Origin: Candidatus Hydrogenedentota bacterium
GTDB taxonomy: Bacteria; Hydrogenedentota; Hydrogenedentia; Hydrogenedentales; SLHB01
Direction of reading: 5' to 3'
DNA: 64,000 bases
Assembly: GCA_963668025.2 (NCBI GenBank)
Contig: CAXXTH010000017.1
Span: 672,001-736,000 of the forward strand
Positions 207 to 44,754 of this stretch are shown here, piece by piece. The notes under the pieces were generated by a model. That model was given only the letters and a program-made list of their open reading frames with translations, did not search any database and had not been told where the DNA came from. The position numbers and the translations under genes are program-made. Position 1 is the first letter of the stretch. Each line of letters starts with the position of its first letter.

Positions 207-1736
207 TCAATGTTGTGTGCCTGCCGCGCGGGCGGTCTTAATCGTATCAAGACGCGGAATAGAGTATGTGCCCATAATCATTTGATCCACCAAGCTCTGC
301 TCGGTGGCGTATTCCTGGGCATGCTCGACCGAGATGCTGCCTTTTCGATATAAGCGGTGCAAGTATTCCTCGAACAAGAACGAATGCGAGACCGATTGTT
401 GCATGCCGATGCGCATGGCGTCCGTATCACCTGCCACAATGGCGTCATTTATGGGTTTGATATCGTTGAACATGAATTCGAGCGCGGGAACCCGGCCGCC
501 GCCGACTCGAGGCACCAGGCGCTGGCAGATGACGCAGCGCATGCAGTCGCGCAATTGGAGCTTGACGAGGTCGCGCTCGACAGGATCGAAGAAGCTGATG
601 ATGCGGTTGACGACCTCGGACGCCGTGTTGGCGTGGAGCGTGCTGATGACGAGGTGGCCGGTGGCTGCGGCATTGATGGCGGCGCGAATGGTGTCGGGAT
701 CGCGCATTTCACCGATGACGATAACATCGGGGTCGTGGCGCAACGCGCCGGTGACCGCATCGCGGAAATCGATCACATCCTTGCCTGTATTGCGCTGGGA
801 GATCACGGCGCGTTTGTTCCGATGCACATACTCGATGGGATTTTCGATGGTTAAGATATGCACGTTCTTCGTGGAGTTGATCCAATCCACCAGGGCGGCG
901 ACGGTCGTGGATTTGCCGCTGCCCGTCATGCCGGTCACCAGCAAAAGCCCCCGGTGCATTTCGCCGAGTTTTTTCATAGTGTCCGTCGGGATATTGAGTT
1001 CTTCGAAGGAGGGTATGATTTCAGGAAGAAAGCGGAATGTGATATGCGGAGCGCCCTGCTTCATGAACGCGGAAACGCGGGAATATCCAAGGCCTACTTG
1101 GTGGAAATTAAAACTCGTCTGCATCGTCTCATGGAATTCTTTCCATTCGACTTCCGCCGTAATCCGCTGGATAAGGTCTAGGATTTGCACGGCGGAAATA
1201 TCGCCGATAAGTTCGGAATTGCGGATGTCGTTATCCACACGAAATACGGGAGGCTGGCCCGGGCATAGATGGACATCGCTTGCTTTATATTGGAGCATGG
1301 CCAAAAAGAGCAACTCGACGCTGATGGGTTCGACGCGATAATCTTCCCCATGCACGCGCCAGATTTCCGGGAGCGCCAAGGCGCTCGAGAACGTCTCGAT
1401 GGCGGCGCCAATGCGTTTTTCATCGGAAGCGTCTTTGCCTGCGCCAGGGCATTCGAATATGCGCCATTCGTTATCCGGCAGGAATGTGCAGACATCCGCA
1501 TACTGTTCCACGATGGGCTTTAGCTGTTCATCTAGTTCTTTGCTGGCCAGGACGCGCAACTGGTACCACTCGAATGGCCCCTTGAATTGTGGCCGGGTGG
1601 CGGTGATCTCCGCAGTAGCGCCGTGTGCGATGATTTTGCGTGGAAAGCCTTCCACCTTGCCCAATATCTCGAGGCTAAGGGAGATAATCTCCCGGACGCT
1701 TTTCTTGGTTCCCATGCCGAGAATATGCTCTGCCAT
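207..1736 (-). CDS. pilT: PilT/PilU family type IV pilus retraction ATPase with ~140-aa N-terminal extension
   Basis: ASDVHL, Walker A GMTGSGKST, TIENPIE, ALRHDPDVIVIGEMRD, TGHLVISTLH motifs; GGAGG RBS. Confidence 0.85.
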   Translation of the reverse strand: MAEHILGMGTKKSVREIISLSLEILGKVEGFPRKIIAHGATAEITATRPQFKGPFEWYQLRVLASKELDEQLKPIVEQYADVCTFLPDNEWRIFECPGAGKDASDEKRIGAAIETFSSALALPEIWRVHGEDYRVEPISVELLFLAMLQYKASDVHLCPGQPPVFRVDNDIRNSELIGDISAVQILDLIQRITAEVEWKEFHETMQTSFNFHQVGLGYSRVSAFMKQGAPHITFRFLPEIIPSFEELNIPTDTMKKLGEMHRGLLLVTGMTGSGKSTTVAALVDWINSTKNVHILTIENPIEYVHRNKRAVISQRNTGKDVIDFRDAVTGALRHDPDVIVIGEMRDPDTIRAAINAAATGHLVISTLHANTASEVVNRIISFFDPVERDLVKLQLRDCMRCVICQRLVPRVGGGRVPALEFMFNDIKPINDAIVAGDTDAMRIGMQQSVSHSFLFEEYLHRLYRKGSISVEHAQEYATEQSLVDQMIMGTYSIPRLDTIKTARAAGTQH

Positions 1737-1785
1737 CGCGCCTCCCCTTTTGCAGCCTCGCTCGCGCCCTATCGAACATTACCCA

Positions 1786-4353
1786 TTACTTCTTAATCGT
1801 AACCTTCTCTCCCACCTTGATGACATGCTTCTTATCCCAGGCGTTCCACTGGGTCAAATCGGCTACTTTAACTCCATACTGCTTGGCGATGCCCGAGGGC
1901 GTGTCGCCAGCGGCTACGATATGAACCGCGGAAGCGGGAGAGGCCTCTGCCTTGCTTGGTTCTGCCTTGCTTGGTTCTGCCTTGCTTGGTTCTGCCTTGC
2001 TTGGTTCTGCCTTGCTTGGTTCCGCCTTGCTTGGTTCCGCCTTGCTTGGTTCCGCCTTGCTTGGTTCCGCTGCGGGCGCTGTTTCGGAAGCGCCGCCCTG
2101 AAGGGCATATGCATCTCCTACTTTGAGCACTTTCTTGGCGTCCCAGCCATTCCACTTACAGAGGTCTTCGACGCTTACGCCATGCTTCTTCGCAATGGTC
2201 CACGCGCTTTCACCCGAGGCAACCTGGAAAGCCCCTTCTTTCTTCGATACGGGTTCCGCTTTTTCTTTCTTCTCCGGTTCTTGCGCCGCAGGCGAAGCCG
2301 CCGATTTCGGATCAGAAACGTAATACTCTTTGCCTGCTTGGATGTTCGAGGAACGGGCCAGCCCGTTCCAAGCCAAAAAGTCGGAGGTTTTGATGTTGTA
2401 TTTTTGCGCGATGCAGCCCGGAGTCTCTCCGGAAGCGACTTTGTGCATCTGGGTGGATGAAGATGAAGCGGGAGTCGATTTCTCGACGGAAGCCGTTTGT
2501 ATCTCGTCCGGTTTAGGTGTTTCGGGTGCGGCGGCAGGAGCCGCATACACCACCAGTTTATCGTTCGCCCGAATGACGGATTTATTGGTCATGTTGTTCC
2601 ATTTGAGCAACTCATCCACGGATACGCCATATTTCGCGGCAATGGTGCCGGGGAATTCGCCTGCTTTCACGACATGCAACCGCTTTTCTTGCCCGGCGGA
2701 AGCGGATTTTTTCTCTTGCGTATCGCTTGGAGGGGCGACGCGCAATTCCTGGTTCACTTGGATATTGTGATCATCCAAGCCATTCCATTGCTTCAGGTCG
2801 CCCGTGGAAATATCGTATTTATCGGCAATTTTGGAAAGGGTGTCGCCTTTTCGGACCTGATGGATATCCACGCCTTTTGCGGAAGCCAGCTCGACTTCTT
2901 CGGGGGCATCGCCATCTTTCCCCGGGATTGTGAGCGTTTTGCCTGCCGCCAGATTCTTTGACGAACGCAATTGATTGGTTTTCATCAAATCTTTGAGCGG
3001 CACACGGAACCGGGAGGCGATGCCGGCCAGCGTGTCTCCCCGGCGCACTTTGTACTTCATGGTCGATTGGGTCGAACGGCTTGTGGTGACGCTCGATTCG
3101 TCGTCAATCGAAGCCAGCGCGACGCCGCCGCGTTCTTCGGGGATTTCACTCAATGCGGTAATCAGGCGTGCATTCGCCTCTCCCGGAACCGCCAGGGCGA
3201 ATTCGCCCGAAGGGGGAGTCACGCCGCGTACGAGATCCGGGTTGAGGCTTTTCAGGGTGTCATCGGGAAGCCCGCACGCCTTTTCGAGCTTGGCGAGGGA
3301 ATACATGCCTTTGACCGGCACGCGGAGATATTGATCGGGCGGCTGGGGATTGACCTCGAAACCGTAGCGTTCTGGGCTGCTCGCCACTACGACGCTAGCC
3401 ACCAGCTTGGGGAAAAATTTTTGCGTCTCGCGCTGCATCCGGTCGGCGGCGGGGCCCTCGAGGATCTTCCACAAATCCTTCTCCCCTCCCGCCATGGCGA
3501 CGGTGCGCTCCATGCCGTATTCGCCGCAATTGTAAGCCGAAATGGCCAGCGGCCACTCGCCAAACATCTGGTATAAGTCTTTCAGATAGGTGACCGCCGC
3601 ATCGGTGGCTTTTTCCCAATTCCGGCGCTCATCCACATAATTATCGACACGCAAGCCGTAGCGGCGTCCGGTGGCGGGCATAAATTGCCACATGCCCACC
3701 GCGCCTGCGGTAGACTTTGCTTGATTCTTAAATTGGCTTTCGACCATGGCCAGCCAGACTAAGTCTTGCGGCAGACCGGCCTCGGCCAGTTTATGGCGCA
3801 CCATGGGCGCATATTTGAAGCTGCGATCAAGACCTGATTGATATCCATTCCGATAGACTTCTTGGATCTCTTCGATCTCGGCGATAATGCGTTCGTTCAG
3901 TGGAAATGGAATCGGCAGATCCCCCACCACGCCCGTGTCGGACATGGCGACATCGCTATATTCACGAGGGCGGCCTTTTTCGAGAATATAGGCCTGCTGC
4001 GTCGTGTTATCTAGTATGCGGCCGAATTCGTTACGCAGATTATAAAAAATGACGGGATCAGGATCGGCCTCGATGAGGAGCTCGAGCATCTGCTTGTAGT
4101 TGCGCAAAGCGGCTTCGGTATCCCCGGATTCCTGGGCTTTATTGCCTTCCTGGAAGGCCCGGTCGGCAGCGCGCAACAGCTCCGTGGTGGAACGAGGCTT
4201 TGCGGGTTCTAAATTGGCTGTTTTAACTTGAGGAGTTGGAAGTGGAGTGAAACGGTGTGTCTTGGCTTGCTGAGGGGTCGAGGCGCAACCGGCCACGGCG
4301 ATAATAGACCCCACGGCAAACAGACGAGTGCATAATCCGAATACGCTCTTCAC
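1786..4353 (-). CDS. MltD-like membrane-bound lytic murein transglycosylase lipoprotein (SLT domain + six LysM)
   Basis: Lipobox VAGC; SLT motifs MVESQF, AVGMWQFM, AYNCGE; six V..G(D/E)(T/S/F)...IA LysM repeats; GTG start with GGAGG. Confidence 0.9.
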   Translation of the reverse strand: MKSVFGLCTRLFAVGSIIAVAGCASTPQQAKTHRFTPLPTPQVKTANLEPAKPRSTTELLRAADRAFQEGNKAQESGDTEAALRNYKQMLELLIEADPDPVIFYNLRNEFGRILDNTTQQAYILEKGRPREYSDVAMSDTGVVGDLPIPFPLNERIIAEIEEIQEVYRNGYQSGLDRSFKYAPMVRHKLAEAGLPQDLVWLAMVESQFKNQAKSTAGAVGMWQFMPATGRRYGLRVDNYVDERRNWEKATDAAVTYLKDLYQMFGEWPLAISAYNCGEYGMERTVAMAGGEKDLWKILEGPAADRMQRETQKFFPKLVASVVVASSPERYGFEVNPQPPDQYLRVPVKGMYSLAKLEKACGLPDDTLKSLNPDLVRGVTPPSGEFALAVPGEANARLITALSEIPEERGGVALASIDDESSVTTSRSTQSTMKYKVRRGDTLAGIASRFRVPLKDLMKTNQLRSSKNLAAGKTLTIPGKDGDAPEEVELASAKGVDIHQVRKGDTLSKIADKYDISTGDLKQWNGLDDHNIQVNQELRVAPPSDTQEKKSASAGQEKRLHVVKAGEFPGTIAAKYGVSVDELLKWNNMTNKSVIRANDKLVVYAAPAAAPETPKPDEIQTASVEKSTPASSSSTQMHKVASGETPGCIAQKYNIKTSDFLAWNGLARSSNIQAGKEYYVSDPKSAASPAAQEPEKKEKAEPVSKKEGAFQVASGESAWTIAKKHGVSVEDLCKWNGWDAKKVLKVGDAYALQGGASETAPAAEPSKAEPSKAEPSKAEPSKAEPSKAEPSKAEPSKAEPSKAEASPASAVHIVAAGDTPSGIAKQYGVKVADLTQWNAWDKKHVIKVGEKVTIKK
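1946..2070. repeat. 15-bp coding tandem repeat (VNTR), 8 full units encoding AEPSK
   Basis: (TCTGCCTTGCTTGGT)x5 then (TCCGCCTTGCTTGGT)x3 plus a partial unit. Confidence 0.97.
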
Positions 4354-4592
4354 TGGGCAAATACCTCCCGAAACGCTACAGGCTCTTGTGTTCTGTTGTC
4401 AGAAACAACAAGATGTTCCTGATTACGTAGTGTAAACATCAATCTGTGGTGTGTCAAGGATTATCCCTGCTAGATGCGGTATATGACACACTCGTGGACC
4501 CCCGTGCGCGGTCCATTATGAACCCCAACTACGGTATATAACGCTTATTACACGTAAAAAAGCGACTTCCCCTTTTCCTCCAAAACGTATGT

Positions 4593-5471
4593 TTACTTAG
4601 GCGCTTTCATGCGCCATATAGCAGACTTGCCTTCAGCTCCTTGCCGTTTCGTAAAATAAATGTAGTCCTCCCGGCTCCAGGAGGGTTGCATTTCATCCGC
4701 CGGGTCCGCTGTCAATTGGCGCACGCTACCGCCCGTGGCGTCCATCACGTACAAGTCTAAATTGCCTGTGCGTTTCGTGGCAAAAATAATCTGGCTGCCA
4801 TCTGGGGAAAAACTGGGATTGATGTCGTCGCCCGGGCTGGAGGTGAGCTGGGTTTGCATGCTGCCGTCGGCATTCATGATCCATATTTCATTATCTTTGG
4901 TGCGGCGCGATACGAATACAATTCTTTTGCCGTCGGGACTGAACCGAGGTTCATCCCCATCCGCCAAAATAATGCCCGGAGCCAGCGACGCATCGTCCTG
5001 GAATACGATGCGCATATCATGGCGTATCAAGTTGCGGGCCACGGCGCGGGCAAAGAGGAGGCCTTTGCCCTTGGGCGCATAGGAGGGAAACTCCTCCATG
5101 CCTTTTTGGTCTGAAAGCTGAAGGTATCCCGAACGGCCCTTGGCGCTCACCTCGTATATATCGCCGCCGCCTGTGCGTTTGGAGGAAAAGAGGATCTTCG
5201 AGTTATCCGGCGACCAACTGGGATAGCGGTCGTCTTTTGGGCTTTCCGTCACTTGATAGGTGCCGCCGGTCCGATAGTCAAAGATATAGATGTCGTGATT
5301 GCCTGTCTGGTCGCTCGCAAAAGCCAGCATATTTCCATCCGGCGAGATCATGGGGTCCACCTCGCGGTGTACGCCCGATGTCATTTGCCGGGGCTCCTGG
5401 CCCAAGGCGTGGATGGAGCACAGTAAGCCGCCTATCATAGCGGCTATAAAAACGTATGGCGCTCGGTTCAT
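4593..5471 (-). CDS. Secreted TolB-like beta-propeller (PD40 repeats)
   Basis: Signal peptide; repeated P.(W/F)SPDG..(I/L).F motifs. Confidence 0.85.
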   Translation of the reverse strand: MNRAPYVFIAAMIGGLLCSIHALGQEPRQMTSGVHREVDPMISPDGNMLAFASDQTGNHDIYIFDYRTGGTYQVTESPKDDRYPSWSPDNSKILFSSKRTGGGDIYEVSAKGRSGYLQLSDQKGMEEFPSYAPKGKGLLFARAVARNLIRHDMRIVFQDDASLAPGIILADGDEPRFSPDGKRIVFVSRRTKDNEIWIMNADGSMQTQLTSSPGDDINPSFSPDGSQIIFATKRTGNLDLYVMDATGGSVRQLTADPADEMQPSWSREDYIYFTKRQGAEGKSAIWRMKAPK

Positions 5472-5852
5472 GACAGCCCTCCGATCTTCAGGCCGGATAC
5501 TTCATCAACTTAAGAGGGTAGCAAGCAAGCGCTTCTCTGTCAAGCTTTCCTTTCGAGAAAAATCTTGCCGTGCGTGCGGCGCCATCTGCACGTGCGGTGT
5601 CCTCATTGCATTCACCCGCTGGATACAGAAACCGCATGGGCGTATCGAGCAAGCAGCGCAGGCTCGATGGCCGTTTTTTTGGGGGCGGTATGGCCATGCG
5701 CTGATTAGCCAAGTGGAGAACAACAAAAAGGCGGTTGATGAAACGCATGTAACGTTGCGCAACTATGCAAATTTGCAAGTCCGAATGGAACGCTAATCAG
5801 AAAAAATAATATAAATCTTTATAAAAAAAGACGTTATATAAAATATGGTTCG

Positions 5853-5868
5853 TGGCACAACATTTGCT
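5853..5868 (+). promoter_or_regulatory. sigma54 (-24/-12) promoter
   Basis: TGGCACAACATTTGCT matches TGGCAC-N5-TTGC exactly; AT-rich tract directly upstream. Confidence 0.85.
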
Positions 5869-5879
5869 TACTTACCGGT

Positions 5880-6036
5880 AGGGTAGAATAGTTGTCCCTC
5901 CCTCTCCTCGTTCTAGGAGCCAGCCCCCCTGATGGCTTCTAGGCAAGTGAGCGCAAGCTTGCTTTTTGGAGAGTTCTTGAGCCAGGCGGGGTACGCCTCG
6001 ATGTTATCGAGCGATACCCCGCCTTGGTTCTTATAT
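5880..6036 (+). ncRNA. Candidate sigma54-dependent small RNA (anti-SD C/U tract + three hairpins)
   Basis: Begins at expected sigma54 +1; no credible ORF; CCCTCCCTCTCCTC at 5896-5909; hairpins CTAGGAGCCA/TGGCTTCTAG, AAGTGAGC-GCAA-GCTTGCTT, GAGCCAGGCGGGGTA/TACCCCGCCTTGGTTC. Confidence 0.55.
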
Positions 6037-6175
6037 GGACCCGCCAATACGTAACGTTACATGTGTTGCGCAACGCTTCTGAACGTTACCTCTCATTTGA
6101 CGTCTTCTCCTACTTTCAAAAGGCTACACTCGTAAATCCTTATAAAAAAGCGTTTTACGTATCAATATGCCGGAT

Positions 6176-6191
6176 TGGCACACATCATGCT
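6176..6191 (+). promoter_or_regulatory. sigma54 promoter for the thioredoxin-MMPL operon
   Basis: TGGCACACATCATGCT, GG-N10-GC spacing, ~45 bp upstream of the start codon. Confidence 0.7.
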
Positions 6192-6237
6192 TTAGTTATA
6201 TTGAAAGCCGGATACCAACTCGATGTATAGGTGAAAT

Positions 6238-6558
6238 GTGTTGCTTCTTGAGGAATGGACGGAAACCATATTGGCGCGCATGTTGTGCGAGCCTCGGTTG
6301 GTAATGGTGGAATTTTTCGCCCACTGGTGCGCGCAAAGCGCGGCGCAAGAGCCGGTCATGCGCGCGCTGGCCCAGAAGTGGAGCGGGCAAAGCGTTTTCG
6401 GTCGGGTAGAGGTCGAACGCTGGCCCGGGGCGATGGAGCGCCACCATGTATCGAGCATTCCGACATTGATTATTTTTAAAAACGGGGAAGAGTTGAGCCG
6501 GTTTGTCGGCGTTCAGCCCCAAGACACGCTGGAGGCCGCATTACGGTCTTGCATGTGA
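6238..6558 (+). CDS. Thioredoxin-like protein with atypical WCAQS (CxxS) active site
   Basis: VEFFAHWCAQS, VSSIPTLIIFKNG, RFVG thioredoxin fold motifs; 106 aa. Confidence 0.8.
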   Translation: MLLLEEWTETILARMLCEPRLVMVEFFAHWCAQSAAQEPVMRALAQKWSGQSVFGRVEVERWPGAMERHHVSSIPTLIIFKNGEELSRFVGVQPQDTLEAALRSCM

Positions 6559-6619
6559 ACCAACTGGCGGATAGGGCAGCATCGCCTTTCGGGCGAGCCA
6601 TCCAAGAAGGAGAGTGAAC

Positions 6620-9457
6620 ATGAAATTCAGCGACCGTATCGTTGAAGCGTCTGTAGACAGGCCCGTGCTAGTGACTGCGGGCATGGTGCTGCTCACACTG
6701 GCGCTGGCGCTGCTGGCGGCATTGCCATCGCTGGCCCCCCAGACATTTTCGATGCTGTATCCGCTCAAGGTCGATACGGACCCGGAGAACATGCTCAGCA
6801 AGAGCGAACCGGTGCGGATTTTCCACGAACAGATGCGCGAAGCGTTGAGCCTGTACGACATGGTGGTGCTGGGCGTCGTCAACGAGAAGGATCCGAACGG
6901 CGTGTTCACGCCGGCATCGCTGGGGCGCATTTATGAGCTGGCCCAATATGCCAAGACTTTGCGGGGCGAGGCGCTGGGCGTGAAAGATCCCGATGCGGGC
7001 GTCATAGAAGTGGATGTGATCGCCCCTTCGACCGTGGACAATATCGAGCAGGGCGGGCCGGGGGAAGTGAAATTCGAGTGGCTGATGCCACAGCCTCCAA
7101 AAACCGAGGAAGAGGCCGTGGCCGTGCGGACGAAAGCGCAGCGAGTCCCGTTTCTCGATGGCACACTGGTCTCGGAAGACGGCAAAGCCCTTTGCCTGTA
7201 TCTGCCGCTCACCTCCAAGGACCTTAGTTACAAGGTCTACCGGAAGCTGAACGCGAAGATTGACGAGATCAAGGCGCGGAACACCGTTCTTGGCGATGAG
7301 GAGCAATACTATATCACCGGCCTGCCGGTGGCGGAGGATACGTTCGGGGTCGAGATGTTCATCCAGATGGCGATCTCGGCCCCCACTGCCATGCTGGTTA
7401 TTTTTTTGCTGATGCTATATTTCTTCCGCAAGCTGGCGCTGATCATCGCGCCAATGATTTTGGCGGTGGTATCGTGCATTATCACGATGGGACTGCTGAT
7501 CGCCACGGGCAACACGATCCATATCATGAGTTCGATGATCCCGATTTTTATCATGCCCATCGCGGTGCTGGACTCGATCCATATCTTGTCGGAGTTTTTC
7601 GACCACTATCAGCGAACACGCGACCGGCGCAAGACCATCATCGAGGTCATGCGATCATTATATACGCCCATGCTGTACACCTCGCTGACTTCGATGGCGG
7701 GCTTCGCATCGCTGGCGCTGACACCCATTCCGCCGGTGCAGGTGTTTGGCCTCTATGTGGCCTTCGGCATCATGATCGCCTGGGTTTTCACCGTGACCTT
7801 CATCCCGGCGTACGTCATGTTCATCCCAGAGCGGCGGCTGCAAAACTTCGGCACCGCCCACGTGGAAGGCGAAGACACCCATGCCAAGACCTTCGTGGGG
7901 CGGCTCCTGCATGGAGCGGGGGAATTCACCTATAACCATGCCAAACTTATTATTGGCGCGAGCGCCGTGATCGCGGCCGTAGCCATCTATGGCATCAGCT
8001 TGATCCATGTCAACGACAATCCGACGAAATGGTTCCGCGCCTCGCATCCCATCCGCGTGGCTGACCGGGTATTGAACGCCCACTTCGGCGGCACATATAT
8101 GGCGTATCTGGCGCTGTTTCCTCAAGGGGAATCCGTGGAGGACATTTTAGCGAATCCGCAAAAGCCTATGGCGGATACCAAAACCACACCCGCAAAGGCG
8201 GAGCCTTCCGTGCCGCAATTGCCGGGCGGCTTAGGCGGCGCATCGGAAATGCCCGCTTTGCCGGGCGGACTCGGAGGCGCGCAGGAAAGCGCCGCACCCA
8301 CGCCTGCACCCTCGGCCACACCCGCAAAGGCGGAAATATTTAAAAATCCAGAAGTGCTCCGGTATATGAACGAGCTCCAACAGTCCATGCTGGATTCGGG
8401 GATGGTGGGCAAATCGAATTCGCTGGCGGATATCGTGAAAACGGTCCACCGGGAATTGATCGACGGCAAACCGGAATCATTCCGCGTGCCGGAGACCTCG
8501 AGCGGCGTGGCGCAATGCCTGCTGCAATATCAAAGCAGCCATCGCCCCAACGACTTGTGGCACTTCACCACGCCCGATTACCGCGTCTCGAGCATTTGGG
8601 TGCAACTCCAAAGCGGAGATAACCTGGATATGCAAAAAGTCGTGGCAGTGGTGGCAGATTATATGAAAGCGCATCCGCCTGTCTTCACCATTGATGGCCA
8701 GCAAGTAGCGCTGCGCGGTGAATGGTTCGGCTCGACTTATATCAATGTCATTTGGCAGGAGAAAATGGTCAAGGGCATGCTCACTACGTTCCTGGGCAGT
8801 TTCCTGGTCGTGCTGCTCATGATGATCATCCTGTTCCGGTCGGGCCTATGGGGGATCCTGTCCATGATACCGCTCACGATCACGATCGGGTTGATCTACA
8901 GCGTCATCGGCTTCATTGGAAAAGACTATGATATGCCGGTGGCCGTGCTGTCGTCGCTGACGCTCGGGCTTGCGGTGGATTTCGCCATTCACTTTCTTGT
9001 GCGGGCGCGCGCCCTCTACGCCGAACATGGAAGCTGGGAAGCCACGCACGCCCACGCCTTCGGCGAACCGGCCCGGGCCATCACGCGCAACATCATTGTG
9101 ATCGCCGTAGGATTCCTGCCGCTGCTCCTGGCGCCGCTGGTGCCGTATAACACCGTGGGAATTTTTCTTGCGGCGATTTTGTCGGTCTCGGGTGTAGGCA
9201 CGTTGTTGCTGTTGCCCGCCTTGGTGCGCGTATTCGAGCCCTTGCTGTTCCCGAAGAGCCGTGTAGCGGGAATCACGTGCCGCTGCGGCACATGCATGCT
9301 TACGGCGGTAGTCGCGGTGGGGACGGTTTGGGTCAACGTGGTGCAGTTTTTAACAAAAGGCGTGACCACGTTTACGATAGCCTCGATCATCGCTGTCCCC
9401 GTGCTGTTGCTGGTTTGTTTCGTGGCGGGACGCCGTTCGAGCTGCAAGACGCCATGA
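6620..9457 (+). CDS. MMPL/RND (HAE3-like) family transporter
   Basis: Two hydrophobic halves with PIAVLDSIH and GLAVDFAIH motifs and large periplasmic loops; AAGGAG RBS. Confidence 0.9.
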   Translation: MKFSDRIVEASVDRPVLVTAGMVLLTLALALLAALPSLAPQTFSMLYPLKVDTDPENMLSKSEPVRIFHEQMREALSLYDMVVLGVVNEKDPNGVFTPASLGRIYELAQYAKTLRGEALGVKDPDAGVIEVDVIAPSTVDNIEQGGPGEVKFEWLMPQPPKTEEEAVAVRTKAQRVPFLDGTLVSEDGKALCLYLPLTSKDLSYKVYRKLNAKIDEIKARNTVLGDEEQYYITGLPVAEDTFGVEMFIQMAISAPTAMLVIFLLMLYFFRKLALIIAPMILAVVSCIITMGLLIATGNTIHIMSSMIPIFIMPIAVLDSIHILSEFFDHYQRTRDRRKTIIEVMRSLYTPMLYTSLTSMAGFASLALTPIPPVQVFGLYVAFGIMIAWVFTVTFIPAYVMFIPERRLQNFGTAHVEGEDTHAKTFVGRLLHGAGEFTYNHAKLIIGASAVIAAVAIYGISLIHVNDNPTKWFRASHPIRVADRVLNAHFGGTYMAYLALFPQGESVEDILANPQKPMADTKTTPAKAEPSVPQLPGGLGGASEMPALPGGLGGAQESAAPTPAPSATPAKAEIFKNPEVLRYMNELQQSMLDSGMVGKSNSLADIVKTVHRELIDGKPESFRVPETSSGVAQCLLQYQSSHRPNDLWHFTTPDYRVSSIWVQLQSGDNLDMQKVVAVVADYMKAHPPVFTIDGQQVALRGEWFGSTYINVIWQEKMVKGMLTTFLGSFLVVLLMMIILFRSGLWGILSMIPLTITIGLIYSVIGFIGKDYDMPVAVLSSLTLGLAVDFAIHFLVRARALYAEHGSWEATHAHAFGEPARAITRNIIVIAVGFLPLLLAPLVPYNTVGIFLAAILSVSGVGTLLLLPALVRVFEPLLFPKSRVAGITCRCGTCMLTAVVAVGTVWVNVVQFLTKGVTTFTIASIIAVPVLLLVCFVAGRRSSCKTP

Positions 9458-9505
9458 CATGGATTTTTGAATCACGTAATACATAGCGCGACATGGCCGC
9501 AACCA

Positions 9506-9590
9506 AAGATCTGGATTTGAGACCACTAAATACACCAAACACACGAAGATTTGTAGGGAGGGGCTTGCCCCACCGCTCAAGGCTAATACG
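9506..9590. repeat. ~85-bp dispersed intergenic repeat containing a GTAG-type REP palindrome (second copy 23116-23199)
   Basis: AAGATC(T/C)GGATTTG.GACCAC.AAA.ACAC.AAA.ACAC.AA..TTTGTAGGG.GGGGCT.GCCCC.CC shared between the two sites. Confidence 0.8.
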
Positions 9591-9614
9591 GTAAGTAACC
9601 AAAGGAGCCAAATC

Positions 9615-10415
9615 ATGAGGCATCTTAACTGGATCACGTGTTCAGCGGTCTTCGCCCTGCTGGGAATCACCGCCGCGGCGCAGGACGCGCCATCAGTGGA
9701 TGAGATCGTCAAGAAGACCAACCATATGGCGTATTACCAAGGCGCGGATGGCCGGGCGCAGGTGAAAATGACCATCACGGACTCGCAAGCCCGGACCCGC
9801 GAGAAGGCCTTCACTATCTTGCGCAAAAACATGGACGACAAGGAAGAAGCGCAGGATTTCTATGTGTATTTCACCGAACCGTCGGACGAACGCGGTACGG
9901 TCTTCATGGTGCATAAGTTCATGGACAAGGATGACGACCGCTGGCTGTATCTGCCCGCCCTTGATGTGGTGAAGCGCATCGCCGCTTCGGACAAGCGCAC
10001 CAGCTTCGCGGGGTCCACATTCTTTTACGAGGACGTGACGGGCCGAAACATCAACGCGGACACCCATGAACTCTTGCAGACCACGGACGTGTATTACGTC
10101 TTGAAAAACACCCCGAAAGATCCCATCACGGTGGAGTTCGACTCGTACACCATGTATATTCACAAGGAGACCTTTATACCGGTGCAGATCACGTTCGAGA
10201 AAGGCGGCGAGATTTACCGCACGGCCACGACGCTGGACGTGAAGGATATCCAGGGTCATAAAACGGTCGTTAAAGGTAAAATGGAAGACAAGAAGATGGG
10301 CACGACGACCGTGCTCGAATACCCGAGCGTCGAGTACGATGTAAACTTGCCCGCGGATATCTATACGGAACGGTATCTGCGCAACGCGCCGGTGGATCAA
10401 CTGAATCTGAAGTAG
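9615..10415 (+). CDS. LolA-like outer-membrane lipoprotein-sorting family protein
   Basis: Signal peptide AAA-Q; DDRWLYLPAL..VKRI...KRTSFAGSTFFYED motif typical of MMPL-associated LolA-like proteins. Confidence 0.85.
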   Translation: MRHLNWITCSAVFALLGITAAAQDAPSVDEIVKKTNHMAYYQGADGRAQVKMTITDSQARTREKAFTILRKNMDDKEEAQDFYVYFTEPSDERGTVFMVHKFMDKDDDRWLYLPALDVVKRIAASDKRTSFAGSTFFYEDVTGRNINADTHELLQTTDVYYVLKNTPKDPITVEFDSYTMYIHKETFIPVQITFEKGGEIYRTATTLDVKDIQGHKTVVKGKMEDKKMGTTTVLEYPSVEYDVNLPADIYTERYLRNAPVDQLNLK

Positions 10416-10451: not shown

Positions 10452-11747
10452 ATGCTGAATCATCTGGAATTGAAGCATGTTGGCCCCGCGACGGAAATGA
10501 CGATTGACTTCGCGCCAAGGCTTAACATCCTTACCGGAGACAACGGCCTCGGCAAGACGTTTGTTTTGGATGTCGCCTGGTGGGCGCTCACCGGTTGTTG
10601 GGCCACGCAGCCCGCGTGGCCCCAACCGGGCAAGGCCCGAGAAGCTGAAATCTCTTACGATTTTCAAACGCTGCCGGAAGCCAAGTGTCACGGCACAAGT
10701 CATTATGATATCAAGTATGAGGACTGGCGAGAGATTGGCAAAGGACCGGATAAACATGGCCTTGCGCTCTATATTCGTGCGGATGGCGGTTTCTCTGTTT
10801 GGGATCCAGCGCGGGATCGTGGGAGAGGAACGCCTTTATCCACGTACGATAGTGAGGAATTCCCCGCCACATATGATTTTACTGCGCGGGAAGTATGGGA
10901 TGGGTTGCCCGGTCCAAAAGGAATACCTGTTTGTAATGGGCTCATACGCGACTGGGTTTCATGGCAAGATAGAGATGATATCGAATTTGAAAAACTCCGC
11001 GAAGTACTTCACGTCCTTTCCTCAATTAAAGAAGAGAACCCTGAACCCGGTGAAGAGAACCTAGAACCCGGTAAGCACACACGCGTTTATGTGAACGACG
11101 CCCGAGATCATCCCACCATCAAGCTGCCATACGGCGAAATCCCTGTGGTATTCGCTTCGGCTGGCATGAAGCGCATTCTGGCGCTCGCATACCTCATTGT
11201 ATGGGCGCAAAGGGAGCATGTTAGCGCGTCCAAGCTACTAGGCGATGCCCCTGCGGAAAATGTCACCATACTGATTGATGAGGTGGAGGCGCATCTCCAT
11301 CCACAATGGCAGCGAATGATCCTGCCTGCCTTACTGAGCACCTTTACTGGCATGAAGCATCAGATCATCGCCAGCACACATGCGCCTTTGGTGATGGCTT
11401 CCGCCGAGCCCATTTTCCAAGAAAATAACGACAAGGTATTGAGCTTCGACGTTGAAGAAAATGAAGTGCGCGTGAAGGAGGTGGGGTGGAGGAGGCGTGG
11501 CGACGCCACCGCATGGCTAACGAGCGAAGTCTTTGGGCTTGAATACGCTCGTTCGCGTAAAGCAGAAGAGGTCATGGAAGAAGCATTCCAAATCATGAAG
11601 AGCGACGTGATAGATGTGGTGAAGGCGCGGCAAGTTCATGAAAAGCTATCAAATCTGCTGAGCGACATCGATCCTTTCTGGATTCGCTGGCGGTATGTGG
11701 GGGAAAAGAAGGGGTGGCTGCATGATACCGGTACATCCGAAGCCTGA
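10452..11747 (+). CDS. ABC-like (AAA_21) ATPase, PtuA/Septu-like defence component
   Basis: Walker A GDNGLGKT, signature SAGMKR, Walker B LIDEVEAHLHPQWQ, H-loop STHAP; no TM segments; overlaps an HNH gene. Confidence 0.8.
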   Translation: MLNHLELKHVGPATEMTIDFAPRLNILTGDNGLGKTFVLDVAWWALTGCWATQPAWPQPGKAREAEISYDFQTLPEAKCHGTSHYDIKYEDWREIGKGPDKHGLALYIRADGGFSVWDPARDRGRGTPLSTYDSEEFPATYDFTAREVWDGLPGPKGIPVCNGLIRDWVSWQDRDDIEFEKLREVLHVLSSIKEENPEPGEENLEPGKHTRVYVNDARDHPTIKLPYGEIPVVFASAGMKRILALAYLIVWAQREHVSASKLLGDAPAENVTILIDEVEAHLHPQWQRMILPALLSTFTGMKHQIIASTHAPLVMASAEPIFQENNDKVLSFDVEENEVRVKEVGWRRRGDATAWLTSEVFGLEYARSRKAEEVMEEAFQIMKSDVIDVVKARQVHEKLSNLLSDIDPFWIRWRYVGEKKGWLHDTGTSEA

Positions 11748-12384
11748 ACCGGCGGATTTTGATGCAAAGGTGCGCCAAAAGGGCTTGGCGTGGCTCAACA
11801 AGAATGGATTTCTTGTTTCTGGACCCATTCCCGCTGGCACCAAATTGCCTTCATATTGGAGAGACTGCCTAAAAGAGCTGCATGCCGCTTATAATGGCAT
11901 TTGCGCGTATGTCTGTATCTATATCGAGCCCGTTACTGGCTCTAGAACCGTCGAGCATTTCGTAGCAAAATCTAAAGACATTGGCCTTGCATATGAATGG
12001 AGCAATTACAGACTCGCATGCGGCAAGATGAACAGCCGCAAATGTGACTTCGACGATGTTCTAGATCCTTTCCTTATTCAAGATAAGATTCAAGATAAGA
12101 CTTTCTTTCTTGATTTGGTGACGGGAGGGATCTTCTCCAATCCGGCATTGGAAGCGGAAACCAAGCAAAAGGCAGATGACACCATTAAGCGTTTGGGGCT
12201 TGATGATCCCGAATGCCGTCAAGTGAGATCCGCTTACTTCGACGATTATATCAATGGCCAAATAACCAGTGATTACCTGCGACGAAAAAATCCTTTTGTA
12301 TGGATAGAAGCATTCAGGCAGAATCTACTCAAACCGGAAGATCTAGCATATGACTACTTCGACGCTTTACAGAATATCAAGTAG
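11722..12384 (+). CDS. HNH endonuclease, PtuB-like
   Basis: CAYVC...VEHFVAKS....AYEWSNYRLAC..MNSRK motif; start overlaps the ATPase 3' end; lower GC than flanks. Confidence 0.8.
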   Translation: MIPVHPKPEPADFDAKVRQKGLAWLNKNGFLVSGPIPAGTKLPSYWRDCLKELHAAYNGICAYVCIYIEPVTGSRTVEHFVAKSKDIGLAYEWSNYRLACGKMNSRKCDFDDVLDPFLIQDKIQDKTFFLDLVTGGIFSNPALEAETKQKADDTIKRLGLDDPECRQVRSAYFDDYINGQITSDYLRRKNPFVWIEAFRQNLLKPEDLAYDYFDALQNIK

Positions 12385-13852
12385 CGTGATTAGTCTGTGT
12401 CTCCTACTCTTCTGCTCAACGCAGGCGGGGTTCGCAGAAGACGCGCCGCCCTTGCCGCCGGGACTCGGCGGTGGCGCGTCGGATGCCGGTCCGGCGTTGC
12501 CTGCGGGACTGGGCGATAGCGCCTCCTCGACGACACCGTCGCTCCCACCGGGCCTAGGCGGAGGCGAGACCAACGGACCTGCGTTGCCGCCTGGACTTGG
12601 CGCTGAAAGCGCCGATTCGGCGAAAGAAGCGCAAACAGCGGGACCGCAAACACTGTTCGAGCGGCTGAGGCTGCATGGATTCTGGGAGGCGCGCGGGGGC
12701 GTCCGCACGCAGGAAGACGCCGCGCAACCCGCTGACGCCATCATCGGTGAAACGCGTTTGCAGTTAAAGTCTCGCTATGATTTCGAGGCCCATGCCAACG
12801 CGCGCATCGAAGCCACCGCGGACCTGTATCTCGACGGCGTCCTCGAGGACCCCGAGGCGGACTTGCGGATGCTGCGGCTCACATGGCCCGTGTCGGACAC
12901 CGTGGACGTGCGCATCGGACGGCAAGTGCTCACGTGGGGTACGGGCGACATGCTGTTCATCAACGATTTGTTCCCGAAGGACTGGCCGTCGTTTTTCATG
13001 GGGCGCGACGCCGAATATCTCAAAGCGCCTTCGGATACGGTGCGCATCGGCTGGTATCCGGGGCCTGTAAATATCGAGTTTGTCTACACGCCGCAGTTCA
13101 CGCCGGACCGTTTCATCACGGGCGAACGGATTAGCTACTGGAATCCGCTCCTCGGGCGGCATGGCGGCCAGCACGAGCAGGTGGATTACAACGCCCCGAG
13201 CACGTGGTTCGAGGACGATGAATTCGCCCTGCGGATTTATAAGAACATCGGGGGCTATGAATTCGCGGTCTACGGATACTCTGGTTACTGGAAAAGCCCC
13301 GGCGGGCAGCGGTTGATTCCGCTCATGCAGGCGTCGTTCCCGAAATTGAACGTCTATGGGGCCAGCGTGCGCGGCACGGTGGGGCGGGGCATTGGCAACA
13401 TCGAGGTGGGTTATTACGATTCTAGGCAAGACCGCCCGGGCGGCAATCCGCTTATCAACAACAGCGAATTCCGCCTGCTGGCAGGATATGAACAGGAACT
13501 AGCGAAGGAATTCACCGGCGCGTTCCAATATTATCTGGAACATATGATGGACTATGGCGAGTACGAGCGCGCCCGGTTCTTCTTCGAGCCGAAACGCCAT
13601 CAAAACCGCCAGGTGCTCACGGTCCGTTTGACGAAGCTGCTCATGAACCAAAATCTGACGCTGTCACTATTCATGTATTACAGCCCCACAGATGGCGACG
13701 CGTATTTGCGCCCGCTCACTCAATACAAGATGAACGATCATTGGACCTTCGAGCTGGGCGGGAATGTGTTTGTGGGCAGGTTGGATACGTCCTTCTTCGG
13801 CCAATTCGAGGACAACACGAATGTGTATGCCTCGGCGCGGTATTCCTTTTGA
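12350..13852 (+). CDS. Outer-membrane beta-barrel protein (DUF1302-like, MMPL-associated) with N-terminal LPxGLG repeats
   Basis: Signal peptide AGFA; RIGRQVLTWGTGD motif; alternating beta-strand pattern; C-terminal ARYSF barrel signature; start uncertain. Confidence 0.75.
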   Translation: MTTSTLYRISSSVISLCLLLFCSTQAGFAEDAPPLPPGLGGGASDAGPALPAGLGDSASSTTPSLPPGLGGGETNGPALPPGLGAESADSAKEAQTAGPQTLFERLRLHGFWEARGGVRTQEDAAQPADAIIGETRLQLKSRYDFEAHANARIEATADLYLDGVLEDPEADLRMLRLTWPVSDTVDVRIGRQVLTWGTGDMLFINDLFPKDWPSFFMGRDAEYLKAPSDTVRIGWYPGPVNIEFVYTPQFTPDRFITGERISYWNPLLGRHGGQHEQVDYNAPSTWFEDDEFALRIYKNIGGYEFAVYGYSGYWKSPGGQRLIPLMQASFPKLNVYGASVRGTVGRGIGNIEVGYYDSRQDRPGGNPLINNSEFRLLAGYEQELAKEFTGAFQYYLEHMMDYGEYERARFFFEPKRHQNRQVLTVRLTKLLMNQNLTLSLFMYYSPTDGDAYLRPLTQYKMNDHWTFELGGNVFVGRLDTSFFGQFEDNTNVYASARYSF

Positions 13853-14204: not shown

Positions 14205-17200
14205 TTATGGCTGTTTCTCCGCTTCATGCAAACATTCATTCAGCCGCTGGGTGAGCACCTCGACATAGGGGGAGGCGAAAATCGCGGCATGGTTGCCGGG
14301 GATGGATATTTGGGTGACGCCGCCGTGTGCATAGTCGCGCCATCCGCAGGCCGTAGCTTCCATTATAGCCGCATAAGCGGGTTCGGGGGCCGTGTGCATC
14401 AGCGTGATGGAGCCGCCGTAAGGCTTTGGCTGGTAGGCGTTGTACTCGCGGGTGTTGGCCCGAAGAGTCGAGAAAACTTGGCGCGTCTCGGGTATGTCTA
14501 TCATCGACAGGCGCTCACTATTGGAGAGCGTGTCGGCCACATTCGCTTTGCGGCGCAGAATGCGGTATACGCCATCGAGCAAGGCCCAATTCAGAAAATC
14601 CCAGAATGCCATGCGATTGCCTTGGCCTTGCATACGCTTCTGTAGCACCTGTAGCATCATGTAAATCCCGTCGCGGATGTACGGTATGGAGTCGCGCGTG
14701 TAGGCGGCGGTGACGTGTAGTATGCGCCAGATTCGCCCGAGGCGTCCCAGTATGCCTCGAGGAGGCTGCATGATGTCATGCTTCAACACGGCATCAAACA
14801 GGATGAGGCTGTCCACGCGCTCGCCTTCGGCTTCGAGCTGGCGCGCCATTTCGAATGCCACGACGCCGCCATAAGACCAGCCCCCGAGAAAATACGGCCC
14901 GTGCGGCTGCACACGCCGCATCGCGGCGATGTAGTGCGTGGCCAGTTCCTCGATGCTGGATATGGATACGGGCTGGCTGCCCACGCGCGGATCTTGCAGG
15001 GCGTAGAAGGGCCTGCCCGGCTCGATATGCAAGGCCATGCCATAATAAGGAAACGCAACGCCAGTGGCGGGAGCGGCGCAGAAAAATGGGCGCTTGCCGC
15101 CTTCGGCGCGCAGGGGGACCAGCACCCCGCCTTCGACCACGGGAGCAGAATCAGGCGCATCCGGGCCGCCCGACAGTGACGCGGCGAGGCCTTCGACCGT
15201 GGGAGTCGAGAACAGCGCCTGGATGGATACTTCCATCCCCGTGGCTTCCTTGAGGCGGGACAGCAACTGTATGGCGGTGAGGGAATGCCCGCCTAACTCG
15301 AAATAATTATCATGCACGCCCACGCGCTCGACACCGAGGACTTCTTGCCATACACGCGCGATGGTTTCTTCCTCGGGCGTTCGCGGGGCCACATAGGCGC
15401 GCGTGGCGGCCAGAGGCTCATCGAGTTCGGGCAGCGCCCGCCGGTCCACTTTGCCGTTGGGCGTGAGGGGGATGCGTTCGATGGCCATGTAGCGGGCCGG
15501 AACCATGTGGTCCGGCAGGGCCGCGCGGAGATGGGCCGCCAAGTCTTGCGGCGCGGGCGCGCACCCTTCCGGTGCATAATAAGCGACAAGCTGTTTGCCG
15601 CCGCGCCCGTCGTCGCGTGCGTCCACCACGGCCTCGCGCACTTGCGGGTGGCTGGCCAGCACGGCCTCGATTTCACCTAGTTCGATGCGGTAGCCGCGCA
15701 CTTTTACTTGCGTGTCGATGCGGCCCAGGAACTCGATTTGGCCGTCGCTCCGGTATCGGACCAAGTCGCCCGTGCGGTACATGCGCGCGCCGGGCGTGTT
15801 CGAGAAGAGATCTGGCACAAAGGCTTTCGCGGTCAAGTCCGGGCGGTTCAAATAACCGCGCGCAAGGCCATATCCGGTGATGTGGAGTTCGCCCGGCACG
15901 CCGATGGGCGTGGGGCGGCCATGCGTATCGAGAATGTAGACGCGCACGTTGGACATGGGGCGTCCGATACTGGGTGCGCCATCGATGCCCGGTTCGAGAA
16001 TGCTGCCTGTCGCCATGACCGTATTTTCCGTGGGGCCATATAAATTCGCGAATTGGGATGGAAACGATTTGGGCGGATAGCGGTGGAGCGTGTCGCCGCC
16101 AGTATAGATAAACCGCATCGAAACCGAAGTGGGCCATTCCAGGCCGAGTATGCCTTCCGCGATGGAGGTCGGCAAGAAGCAACCTGTTAGCCGTTCCGAC
16201 AGGATCCAATCGCGCACGGCTTCATATGACGATAAGGAATTCAGATCCTGGACGTGCAGGCTGCCGCCCGCCGTGAGGGCCCACCACGTTTCATACGTTG
16301 CCGCATCGAATGCGGGGCCGGAGACGCAGGTCGAGCGGTCTTCAGGCGTACAGGCGAATGTCTCATGGTGCCACTGCAACAGATGCCGGAGCGGGCCGTG
16401 GTTAATCTCGACTCCCTTGGGCTGGCCCGTCGAGCCGCTGGTGTAAATGACATACGAGCGGTCCTCGGGGCCTATCGGAATATTCAGCTCCGAATCCGGC
16501 TCTTGGGCGAAGGCCGTCCATTCGGGGTCCACGGAGAACATGCGTACGCCGCTTCCCTCGAACTGGGCGGCGCATTCCGGCCCGGCCAGGAGCGCACGTG
16601 CGGCGGAATCCTCGAGCATAAAGGCGATACGGCTAGGGGGATAGGCGGGGTCGATGGCCACATAGGCCGCTCCGGCTTTCCATACCCCCAGCCACGCCAC
16701 AGGCAATTCCGGGCAGCGTTTCATACACACCGCCACGAGATCGCCGGGTTGCACGCCATGGCGGCGCAGCGTATGGGCGATCTGGTTCGCGCGGGCGTTC
16801 AGTTCGCCATAGGTGAGGCGGCGTCCGCGCCCTTCGATGGCCAGCGCCTCGGGGCGGGCCATGGCGTTGTCGCGCACCCAATCGGGCGGGCATGGCGCAT
16901 CAGGATATGTACGCTCCGTGGCGTTCCATTCGACCAGCACGCGGTGGCGTTCCGCTTCGGACAGCGTGGCAATGGTTCCCAAAGGCGCGTCTTCATTTGC
17001 GGCGATGTGTTCGAGCGCCGTGCGCCATTGTCCAAGAACGCGCTCCACTTCCGCTTCGCTGAAATAGCGGCGGTCGTATACCAGCCGGAGCAGAAGGGTT
17101 TGCCCGACGGCCACGGCGGTGAGGGGATAATTGGTGCGTTCATACATGCCGTGTTCGAGGAGCCGCAGATCGCCCATGCCATCTCGGAGGGAATCATCCA

Positions 17201-23012: not shown

Positions 23013-23115
23013 TGTAAACTTCCTTGCCTGCCCCAGATGAACCAGAGCCAACTGCCGATATATTGGAAACCGCGAATGGATGCCAATAAACTTATCGCAG
23101 TATAGCTGCAATTAA

Positions 23116-43095: not shown

Positions 43096-43208
43096 ACATT
43101 TAAAACCGGCTTGGATTTGATAGTGCGATGGGTGCCGCATCGTTGCAAATAATGTAGATCCGATCGAGGTATAAAATTCGCTGTAATATGTAAACAGTGA
43201 GGAGAAGC

Positions 43209-43838
43209 ATGGACATGCCGGAGCGCCCCGTATATCCGCTTACGCTGTACTTCATGCGGCATGCCCATTCCGTTTCACAAGAAGATCGAAGCATCGTCAT
43301 CGGCCGGGCTGCATCGCGCCCCTTGAGCGCCGAGGGCCGCAGGCAGGCCGAATCCGCCGCGAAATCCGCGCACCTATTGGGAGCCACGCGCGTATATGCC
43401 TCCACGTGCGTCCGGGCGCTGCAAACGGCAAGCTTCATGGGCCGCGCCTTCCAGATGCCTGTCATCGTAGATGAATTGCTCATCGAACGCTCGCACGGCG
43501 AACTCGATGGCCGCAAAAAAACGGAAGCATATACGCCCGAGCTAGTGGCGGAAATCCATGCGGATCAATTGCATTGGCGACCAGCAGGCGGCGAGTCCTT
43601 GGCGGATGTGGAAGAGCGAATCAAGCGCTTCCTATCCAAAATCGCAGTATCTCCGCCAGAAGGCCCTTGCCTTATCGTCACGCACCTGATGGTGTTGTGG
43701 GCCTTATTCCATCTATGCACCCAATGCAGCCATGCCATTTTGCCTTTCTTGCATGTGGATAATGCCGGTTTGGTGGAAGTGGAAATGCACAGCCTCGATT
43801 CGCTGCGCTTGATTCGCTGGAACAGGCCGTTTATATGA
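43209..43838 (+). CDS. Histidine phosphatase (phosphoglycerate mutase) family protein
   Basis: YFMRHA, PLS.EG..QA, RA.QTA, GGES, IVTH motifs. Confidence 0.85.
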   Translation: MDMPERPVYPLTLYFMRHAHSVSQEDRSIVIGRAASRPLSAEGRRQAESAAKSAHLLGATRVYASTCVRALQTASFMGRAFQMPVIVDELLIERSHGELDGRKKTEAYTPELVAEIHADQLHWRPAGGESLADVEERIKRFLSKIAVSPPEGPCLIVTHLMVLWALFHLCTQCSHAILPFLHVDNAGLVEVEMHSLDSLRLIRWNRPFI

Positions 43839-44223
43839 TATGCATACGCTTTTTACGGCGCGCCCCGGTATAGGGGAGGAGAGGGAGGGGCCAAACGGCG
43901 CGAATAACCGAACACTCCGGGCATAGCATCCGATTATGGGAGCCTTAGGTGCGCGGTCCGGCCCCTACCCTCTGGTGGTGGCATTGCAAACAGGCTGGCC
44001 AGCCCAGTATACCGGCGCTGGCGGCGTCTTCCGGCCACGACTCTTTTCGCAGGAATACCCACAAAAACCAGCCATGCCACTCCAAGGCGGAAAAATGACT
44101 CTTCCCTGGCCTTGGGCGTCAAAACCCATTCATGGGCGCTCTATTCTTCTGCTCCTATGTGTGCTCGCTTGCCGCGGTTCTCATGTAGCCGGATTACTCA
44201 TTCAGCCTAACGGCATATCATTA

Positions 44224-44600: not shown

Positions 44601-44616
44601 TGGCACGGACCATGCT
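44601..44616 (+). promoter_or_regulatory. sigma54 promoter
   Basis: TGGCACGGACCATGCT, GG-N10-GC; AT-rich tract upstream. Confidence 0.75.
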
Positions 44617-44754
44617 CTTATTCATGGCATGCGGCGTTAGGAATGTAGATGCCTACCGCCGCGGGAGCGAGAAGGCGCCGCTTGCGTAGTGTGTGTGCTA
44701 CGGGGGCGTGAAGCGCTTTGGTCCTGTCCAACAGCAAATCGAAAGGGTAGTAAG

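Follow-up and report, generated by a model that had tools for sequence, protein, structure and literature searches.

A predicted small RNA family of Candidatus Hydrogenedentota with a putative sigma-54-dependent member

Small RNAs (sRNAs) that depend on sigma-54 and an activator include Qrr1-5 (LuxO), GlmY (GlrR), NrsZ (NtrC), Pxr and CJnc230. Other sRNAs, among them RsaE/RoxS, RepG and the cuckoo RNAs of alphaproteobacteria, cover G-rich ribosome-binding sites with a C-rich or C/U-rich seed; cuckoo RNAs occur in several copies per genome and display CCUCCUCCC in hairpin loops, and C-rich-seed regulators are also present in bacteria that lack Hfq. A third kind derives from the 3'-UTR of an mRNA, as do CpxQ and GlnZ (from glnA). 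The locus described here, in a genome of Candidatus Hydrogenedentota, resembles each of these in part. In the titles and abstract openings searched nothing was found on this RNA, and no regulatory RNA of Hydrogenedentota is described in them.

Promoter P1, TGGCACAACATTTGCT at 5853..5868 (+), is an exact match to the sigma-54 consensus TGGCAC-N5-TTGCW, the sole one within the window (the 64-kb stretch of DNA that was analysed); the 6.1-Mb genome, which contains an rpoN gene, has 12 such matches in all. An upstream activator-type site, GTAACGTTGCGCAACT, lies about 100 nt before it (site 1, 5749..5764, +); it holds the palindrome GTTGCGCAAC, to which an activator would bind. Between site 1 and the promoter, an A/T-rich block, TAAATCTTTATAAAAAAAG... 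(5813..5846, +), may serve as a DNA-bending site. A small RNA of about 150 nt is predicted at 5879..6032 (+), with its 5' end placed from the promoter geometry and its 3' end from a terminal hairpin; this segment is matched by the covariance models described below with 81.7-92.2 bits. The overlapping ORFs between this promoter and the next (promoter P2) reach only 40-44 aa and are unconserved, none being common to the seven homologues. Transcription of the RNA in the present genome is, judging from its promoter, quite likely to be sigma-54-dependent; the locus was found in four sequencing runs, none of which is an RNA run. It would then share with Qrr, GlmY, NrsZ, Pxr and CJnc230 a stand-alone gene, a -24/-12 promoter and an activator site about 100 nt upstream (here predicted). 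Unlike the Qrr/GlmY class, it has no Rfam match, comes from another phylum and is present in a single copy per genome, and it has its sigma-54 promoter in only one of three carrier genera. In a further departure from Qrr, Hfq was not found by a PF17209 search of the present genome, which is 93.75% complete. On the other side of the locus, three genes are divergent from the RNA (237-5471, -): one for a TolB-like PD40 protein (4593-5471), one for an MltD-like lytic transglycosylase (1786-4353) that contains six LysM domains and eight EPSKA repeats, and one for a PilT/PilU-family ATPase (237-1736) with an N-terminal extension of about 140 aa, of which 49 of the 54 family genomes have a single-copy ortholog.

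The segment 5878-6040 folds at -75 kcal/mol, compared with -52.6 +/- 4.5 kcal/mol for shuffled sequences (z -4.98; 0 of 200 shuffles as good). The predicted fold starts with a weak 5' hairpin (5880..5899, +) in which AGGG (5880-5883) pairs with CCCU (5896-5899); the homologue of genus g5 has an analogous one. An invariant 12-mer, CCCUCCCUCUCC (5896..5907, +), is identical in all seven homologues. It is followed by hairpin P2 (5912..5943, +), whose C-rich loop GCCCCCCUGA (5923-5932) contains the CCCCC found in all homologues and, with a predicted unpaired probability of 0.63-1.0, is the only reliably open C-rich element in the present genome. Hairpin P3 (5945..5964, +) has a GCAA tetraloop. The second invariant strand, GGAGAGUU (5968..5975, +; GGAGRGUU across the family), pairs through GGAGAG with CUCUCC at 5902-5907 to form helix P1, and a long G+C-rich terminal hairpin, P4, follows at 5979..6030 (+). 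Behind it the tail is UUAUAU, with no U run, and a terminator scan called no canonical U-tract terminator. The RNA would thus form a junction closed by CUCUCC:GGAGAG, with two hairpins, one of them carrying the open CCCCC loop, and the long terminal hairpin. The first-pass annotation, made from the bare sequence, had read a perfect sigma-54 promoter, about 155 nt free of ORFs and the same succession of a C-rich-loop hairpin, a GCAA-tetraloop hairpin and a long terminal hairpin; all of these were recovered, the ORF-free interval over about 150 nt.

The whole window had no match in Rfam 15 at the gathering score, and for 5700-6240 a search at E up to 10 gave only three chance-level matches (mir-789, a plastid 3' UTR and an lncRNA). 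Homologues were sought by two routes. Comparison of the 191-nt region at the DNA level with 61 related genomes gave, outside its own genome, three short matches of 22-52 nt; since one of them lay in coding-looking sequence, all three were treated as chance. The productive route went through the MMPL transporter gene near the RNA: orthologs were identified in 29 of 54 family genomes (E <= 1e-30) and their upstream regions were inspected. In genus g6 an element was found in the same slot upstream of the MMPL gene, beginning with the same CCCTCCCTCTCC and having the same layout. A covariance model built from the present genome's copy and three g6 copies (R1) detected one locus in each of seven of the 54 family genomes, and a model built from those seven sequences (R2) found the same seven, one copy each, among 135 genomes of the phylum. 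The carriers belong to three genera: the present genome (genus g1), the single g5 genome and five of the six g6 genomes, the sixth being not judgeable as its contig begins 148 nt before the MMPL gene.

Three elements are invariant in all seven sequences: CCCUCCCUCUCC, the CCCCC of the P2 loop and GGAGRGUU. The stems of hairpins P2, P3 and P4 differ in sequence among g1, g5 and the two g6 subgroups (g6a and g6b), yet they pair. In the seven-sequence alignment 90.4% of the pair cells hold standard pairs, versus 38-52% when the partners are slid, and in 19 of 48 pairs both partners are changed, a count that none of 500 shuffles attained (shuffle mean 6.9) and that draws on roughly four independent lineages and an alignment that had itself been fitted to the model. 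The compensatory changes fall on six of eight pairs in hairpin P2, two of the five modelled pairs in hairpin P3 and nine of 23 in hairpin P4. G-U pairs are frequent, and the reverse strand scores at most 23 bits against 92-179 bits for the forward strand, for which reasons the RNA was assigned to the + strand. That a real, conserved structured RNA is encoded here is very likely. The covariation among relatives that the first-pass annotation had named as a check is thus present, and its suggestion of a new sRNA family agrees with the conserved structure, the lack of an Rfam match and the literature searched.

The distribution was extended to public collections with the pattern CCCTCCCTCTCC-N10-24-CCCCC-N30-55-GGAGRGTT. 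Public genome contigs gave 11 loci, namely six genomes already found and five chance matches; the six matching records are labelled Candidatus Hydrogenedentota/Hydrogenedentes (five) and Nitrospiraceae (one). Public metagenome contigs gave five loci, of which one was real, with a score identical to that of the g5 copy, and four were rejected as chance, one of them a tRNA 3' end. No lineage beyond the known carriers appeared in either collection. An origin of the tract from a tRNA, an idea that came from locus L057, was rejected because the RNA is without a T-arm. Genus g4 has, in the slot between the DUF2892 gene and the activator site, an element that resembles the RNA in its start (UUCCCUCCCU) and its layout. 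It was undetected by R1 and R2, even with filters off, and a MAFFT alignment that included the g4 elements was structurally wrong and was discarded; the g4 element is therefore taken as similar in position and layout, not as an established homologue.

Although the RNA itself is kept, its surroundings are not. In the five g6 genomes it begins 6-35 nt past the stop codon of a DUF2892 gene with no promoter between the two, and in g6b the sole promoter-like site is of the sigma-70 type and stands before the DUF2892 gene. In g5 the RNA is an intergenic orphan flanked by unrelated genes; upstream of this copy neither a -24/-12 element with the right spacing nor, in the scan, a sigma-70 consensus was found, and a possible extended -10 was spotted by eye in TGGTAGAAT. 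In the present genome the DUF2892 gene is on another contig and is without the RNA. The genes downstream differ too, others following in g5 and g6b. Sequence and fold are thus retained while the mode of transcription and the neighbours change, which speaks for a function of its own rather than for a leader or a simple terminator. The view of the first-pass annotation that the RNA is sigma-54-driven agrees with the promoter that it has in the present genome, and does not extend to the family, the g6 copies lying behind DUF2892 and the g5 copy being without a correctly spaced -24/-12 element.

The g6 arrangement also admits a different reading, in which the element would belong to the 3' end of the DUF2892 transcript and act in cis only, whether as a stabiliser, as a terminator or as an insulator that shields the activator sites of the following promoter from read-through; the copy in the present genome would be a leftover whose upstream promoter was kept after the DUF2892 ORF moved away. 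We regard this as unlikely. It fits five of the seven genomes (all g6), the sigma-70-like promoter of the g6b DUF2892 gene, the g4 element of similar layout that fills the slot between DUF2892 and the activator site, and the long G+C-rich hairpin that always ends the element. A terminator or stabiliser, however, has no need of an invariant 12-mer, GGAGRGUU and CCCCC loop while the other helices vary, and the RNA is intact away from DUF2892 in both the present genome and g5, in the former with a full promoter set of its own. The g6 RNA would, like GlnZ and CpxQ, come from the 3' end of the mRNA whose stop codon it directly follows; the RNA of the present genome, unlike these, has no preceding ORF and is provided with its own promoter.

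The best reading of the segment at about 5879-6032 (+), put forward tentatively and from sequence comparison, is a non-coding RNA that acts in trans and independently of Hfq. Against it stands the state of its C/U tract, which in the predicted fold departs from a typical open seed. The first-pass annotation had described a single-stranded UCCCUCCCUCUCCUC of 15 nt (5895-5909) as an exposed anti-Shine-Dalgarno sequence; the predicted fold contradicts this, as the tract is mostly paired. Both halves are predicted to be paired in the present genome, CCCU (5896-5899) with AGGG (5880-5883) and CUCUCC (5902-5907) with GGAGAG (5968-5973), and both are predicted to be paired in the g5 copy too. With a 5' end at 5876-5880 the prediction leaves two to four of the 15 tract nucleotides open; if the RNA began at 5882, the first half would be free. 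In the predicted folds one half of the 12-mer is open in g6, and the CCCCC loop is conserved and open. Like RsaE/RoxS, RepG and the cuckoo RNAs, the present RNA has a conserved, unpaired CCCCC loop, a C/U tract complementary to Shine-Dalgarno-like sequences and a host in which Hfq is apparently absent; unlike them, its longest C/U tract is predicted to be a helix strand and largely paired. It further differs from the cuckoo RNAs in having CCCUCCCUCUCC rather than CCUCCUCCC as its motif, one copy per genome and no Rfam match.

The register of helix P1 varies: in g6 it is formed by GGAGGG and the first half of the 12-mer, in the present genome and g5 by GGAGAG and the second half. The helix is without covariation, five of its seven pairs never varying. 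As all 12 nt are invariant and only six are needed for helix P1, the tract and GGAGRG seem to be constrained by more than this helix, which could be a partner in trans or a protein. A protein or the 30S subunit might bind the invariant C/U strand and the Shine-Dalgarno-like GGAGRG strand, singly or as a duplex, with no pairing to mRNA, the RNA then being a decoy. The invariance of both helix P1 strands among freely covarying helices, and the fixation of all 12 nt despite a pairing register that shifts between lineages, are compatible with such a decoy, and CsrA is encoded in the present genome. The RNA has only two GGA motifs, though, unlike known CsrA sponges, and none of the genomes examined has a partner protein linked to the RNA; we hold the decoy to be quite improbable.

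Returning to the RNA as a trans-acting regulator, its transcriptional control is predicted to be shared with the adjacent operon. This operon (6238..10415, +) encodes, by Pfam and NCBIfam assignments, a thioredoxin-like protein (Trx, 6238-6558), an MMPL/RND-type transporter (6614-9457) and a LolA-like protein (9615-10415). A second sigma-54-type promoter, P2, TGGCACACATCATGCT at 6176..6191 (+), has one mismatch to the consensus and ends 47 nt before the Trx-like ORF; the next gene therefore has its own promoter, separate from promoter P1, as the first-pass annotation had proposed. About 112 nt before promoter P2 lies activator-type site 2 (6051..6089, +), made up of GTAACGTTAC, GTTGCGCAAC and AACGTTAC. 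Alignment of the upstream regions of the two promoters shows three common blocks: besides the promoter itself, these are the palindrome GTTGCGCAAC and TAAATC(T/C)TTATAAAAAA. The A/T-rich block before promoter P1 is shared with promoter P2. The motif CGTTGCGCAACG occurs with one mismatch each at -100 of promoter P1 (as CGTTGCGCAACT) and at -112 of promoter P2. Sigma-54 sites with at most one mismatch number four in the window versus 2.47 expected, a count that is not significant on its own. Genome-wide, promoters P1 and P2 are the only ones with at most one mismatch that are paired with a CGTTGCGCAACG of at most one mismatch about 100-112 nt upstream. As no other good promoter in the genome has a CGTTGCGCAACG site, the predicted regulon consists of two transcription units. 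Among the relatives, CGTTGCGCAACG (at most two mismatches) is present 89-146 nt upstream of the sigma-54 promoter at seven of 21 loci examined (L007, L012, L018, L021, L022, L023 and L026), and the genes behind these seven promoters are orthologous Trx/MMPL or DUF2892 genes.

Two further sigma-54-type promoters were noted in the course of these scans. At 44601-45180 (+) of the window a one-mismatch promoter, TGGCACGGACCATGCT, is followed after about 140 nt by a small ORF that is rich in Ala and Lys and looks secreted, and a gene-poor region of 900 nt lies upstream. Outside the window, an exact promoter, TGGCACATGCATTGCT, at C18:279869 (+) is located in an A/T-rich intergenic region and is followed by at least 300 nt without an ORF of 80 aa or more; it could belong to a second sigma-54-driven non-coding RNA or to a long leader.

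A gene for an activator with PAS, Sigma54_activat (AAA+) and HTH_8 domains lies beside the cluster in two of the five relatives' genomes checked (G076 and G014). Its ortholog in the present genome is C10:9868-11286 (62.7% identity over 475 aa; next best paralog 40%), and from this orthology C10:9868-11286 is likely to be the activator of the RNA promoter. The genome has 16 strong sigma-54 activator genes. In the proposed scheme this PAS-domain activator would bind the palindrome about 100 nt upstream, whereupon promoter P1 would fire and the RNA would be made as its own transcription unit. Because the same activator site precedes promoter P2, we propose that the RNA and the Trx-MMPL-LolA-like operon are switched on together; that the two share one activator appears, from their upstream sites, somewhat more probable than separate control. 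Such co-regulation with protein-coding genes of the same activator, predicted here, is again a trait of the Qrr/GlmY class.

That promoters P1 and P2 are instead tandem sigma-54 promoters of the operon, with the RNA as a leader tuning read-through or translation in cis, is very unlikely: the common strand, the mere 200 nt or so from the RNA end to the Trx start, the same upstream site at both promoters and the lack of a canonical intrinsic terminator after the terminal hairpin, which would allow read-through into promoter P2 and the Trx gene, would suit a leader, but a complete activator site and promoter P2 stand downstream of the RNA, other genes follow it in g5 and g6b, and the Trx, MMPL and LolA-like starts are not notably complementary to its C-rich elements. 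The first-pass annotation had likewise thought a leader unlikely, and the separate promoters agree with it.

At locus L061 (G014:C9:1342500-1352000) the PAS-type activator gene is followed by a gene for a CoA-disulfide-reductase-like oxidoreductase-rhodanese fusion, a DUF302 gene and the MMPL ortholog, and a response-regulator-type sigma-54 activator is encoded upstream of the PAS-type one. The thioredoxin, DUF2892, and the CoA-disulfide-reductase/rhodanese and DUF302 proteins of G014 presumably hint, as a weak inference of ours, at thiol or sulfur stress; the titles and abstract openings searched held nothing specific on a sulfur-stress link of this cluster.

Downstream of the operon, an AAA_15/AAA_21 ATPase gene (431 aa) is followed by ORFs of 229 and 500 aa without a Pfam match (10452-13852, +); this gene set may be a defence-type module. 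On the opposite strand (14205-23111, -), a non-ribosomal peptide synthetase of 2968 aa has three condensation domains, two adenylation domains, two carrier domains, a thioesterase and a docking domain of the TubC type. Two repeats were also observed. A 60-nt stretch around ...CCAGAGGGAGGAATGGGTC... is identical at at least seven places in the genome (e.g. C10:91163, C10:251563, C11:159540, C14:100727, C18:8262, C6:116179 and C8:16594), and ...GGTTCGGAGGGAGGGGAGACCGG... occurs at four; they are probably a mobile element and its ends.

If the RNA acts by base pairing, its invariant C-rich loop, together with the C/U tract after the short clamping helices have opened, would bind mRNAs at G-rich ribosome-binding regions and reduce the translation of these mRNAs under the inducing stress. 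The host uses Shine-Dalgarno pairing: the 3' end of its 16S is canonical, and ORF starts are preceded by an enrichment of G at -8 to -13. A base-pairing regulator acting in trans is a possibility that we favour with reserve, somewhat below an even chance. Our scans for targets, a check of the kind that the first-pass annotation had proposed, yielded no specific, conserved target. RNAduplex was used against 7361 crude start regions of the present genome: the 16 best duplexes had no common theme, and the start regions of the regulon itself were unremarkable (quantiles of 0.86 for Trx, 0.28 for MMPL and 0.68 for LolA-like). Sites complementary to the invariant tract over 9 nt number 56 in the genome, and additional genomic copies of the complement of the 12-mer are as frequent as those of a reversed-pattern control.

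One candidate was followed across the carriers. In the two g6b genomes the PilT/PilU-family ATPase gene has a 13-nt perfect complement 5 nt before its ATG, and its ortholog lies at 237-1736 (-) in the window, 4 kb from the RNA, and 6 kb from the RNA in g6a. Ranked against the start regions of the present genome as background, the ATPase start region has a rank of 0.002 in the present genome, of 0.016-0.088 in g6a and of 0.28 in g5, and it is in the top 0.2-9% in six of the seven RNA-carrying genomes. As a target the ATPase failed its control, the start region being equally G/A-rich in many genomes without the RNA: 23 orthologs from RNA-less genomes gave a mean energy of -13.3 versus -17.7 for genomes with the RNA, with overlapping ranges, the difference stems from g6b, and several of the 23 are equally complementary, three g4 genomes for example reaching -20.1 kcal/mol. 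With the invariant 12-mer alone, the value in the present genome is an ordinary -13.4. We treat the ATPase as a lead rather than as a finding.

A 14-nt sequence perfectly complementary to the C/U tract, GAGGAGAGGGAGGG, was also observed at 43874-43888 (+) of the window, 36 nt past the stop of a 213-aa ORF (43197-43838) that is histidine-phosphatase-like by eye. Composition-matched 14-mers have a mean of 0.045 occurrences per genome, with 3.8% of them present at least once; on neither strand does the sequence around GAGGAGAGGGAGGG fold better than shuffles. The match may mark a target site or a sponge site, or be due to chance.

A further idea, which we rate as highly improbable, is that the RNA is no ordinary antisense regulator but a switchable mimic of the Shine-Dalgarno:anti-Shine-Dalgarno duplex, in which the strands CCCUCCCUCUCC and GGAGRG would be held in alternative registers and read in trans once the RNA is induced by the activator. 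Were it true, 30S subunits or an initiation-related protein, for example, would read the strands, and translation initiation would be retuned globally during the stress that induces the exporter.

The RNA belongs to a family of Hydrogenedentota that has not been described before, and the regulatory logic proposed for it is familiar. Its practical value is modest for now. Hydrogenedentota are known almost only from metagenomes, and the locus offers a small circuit open to testing: a PAS-type activator of sigma-54, two promoters, the RNA and the Trx-MMPL-LolA-like exporter operon. In its three genera the same RNA appears as a stand-alone sigma-54 gene, as an orphan and at the 3' end of an mRNA, and these three contexts make it a useful case for sRNA genes that switch their mode of transcription.
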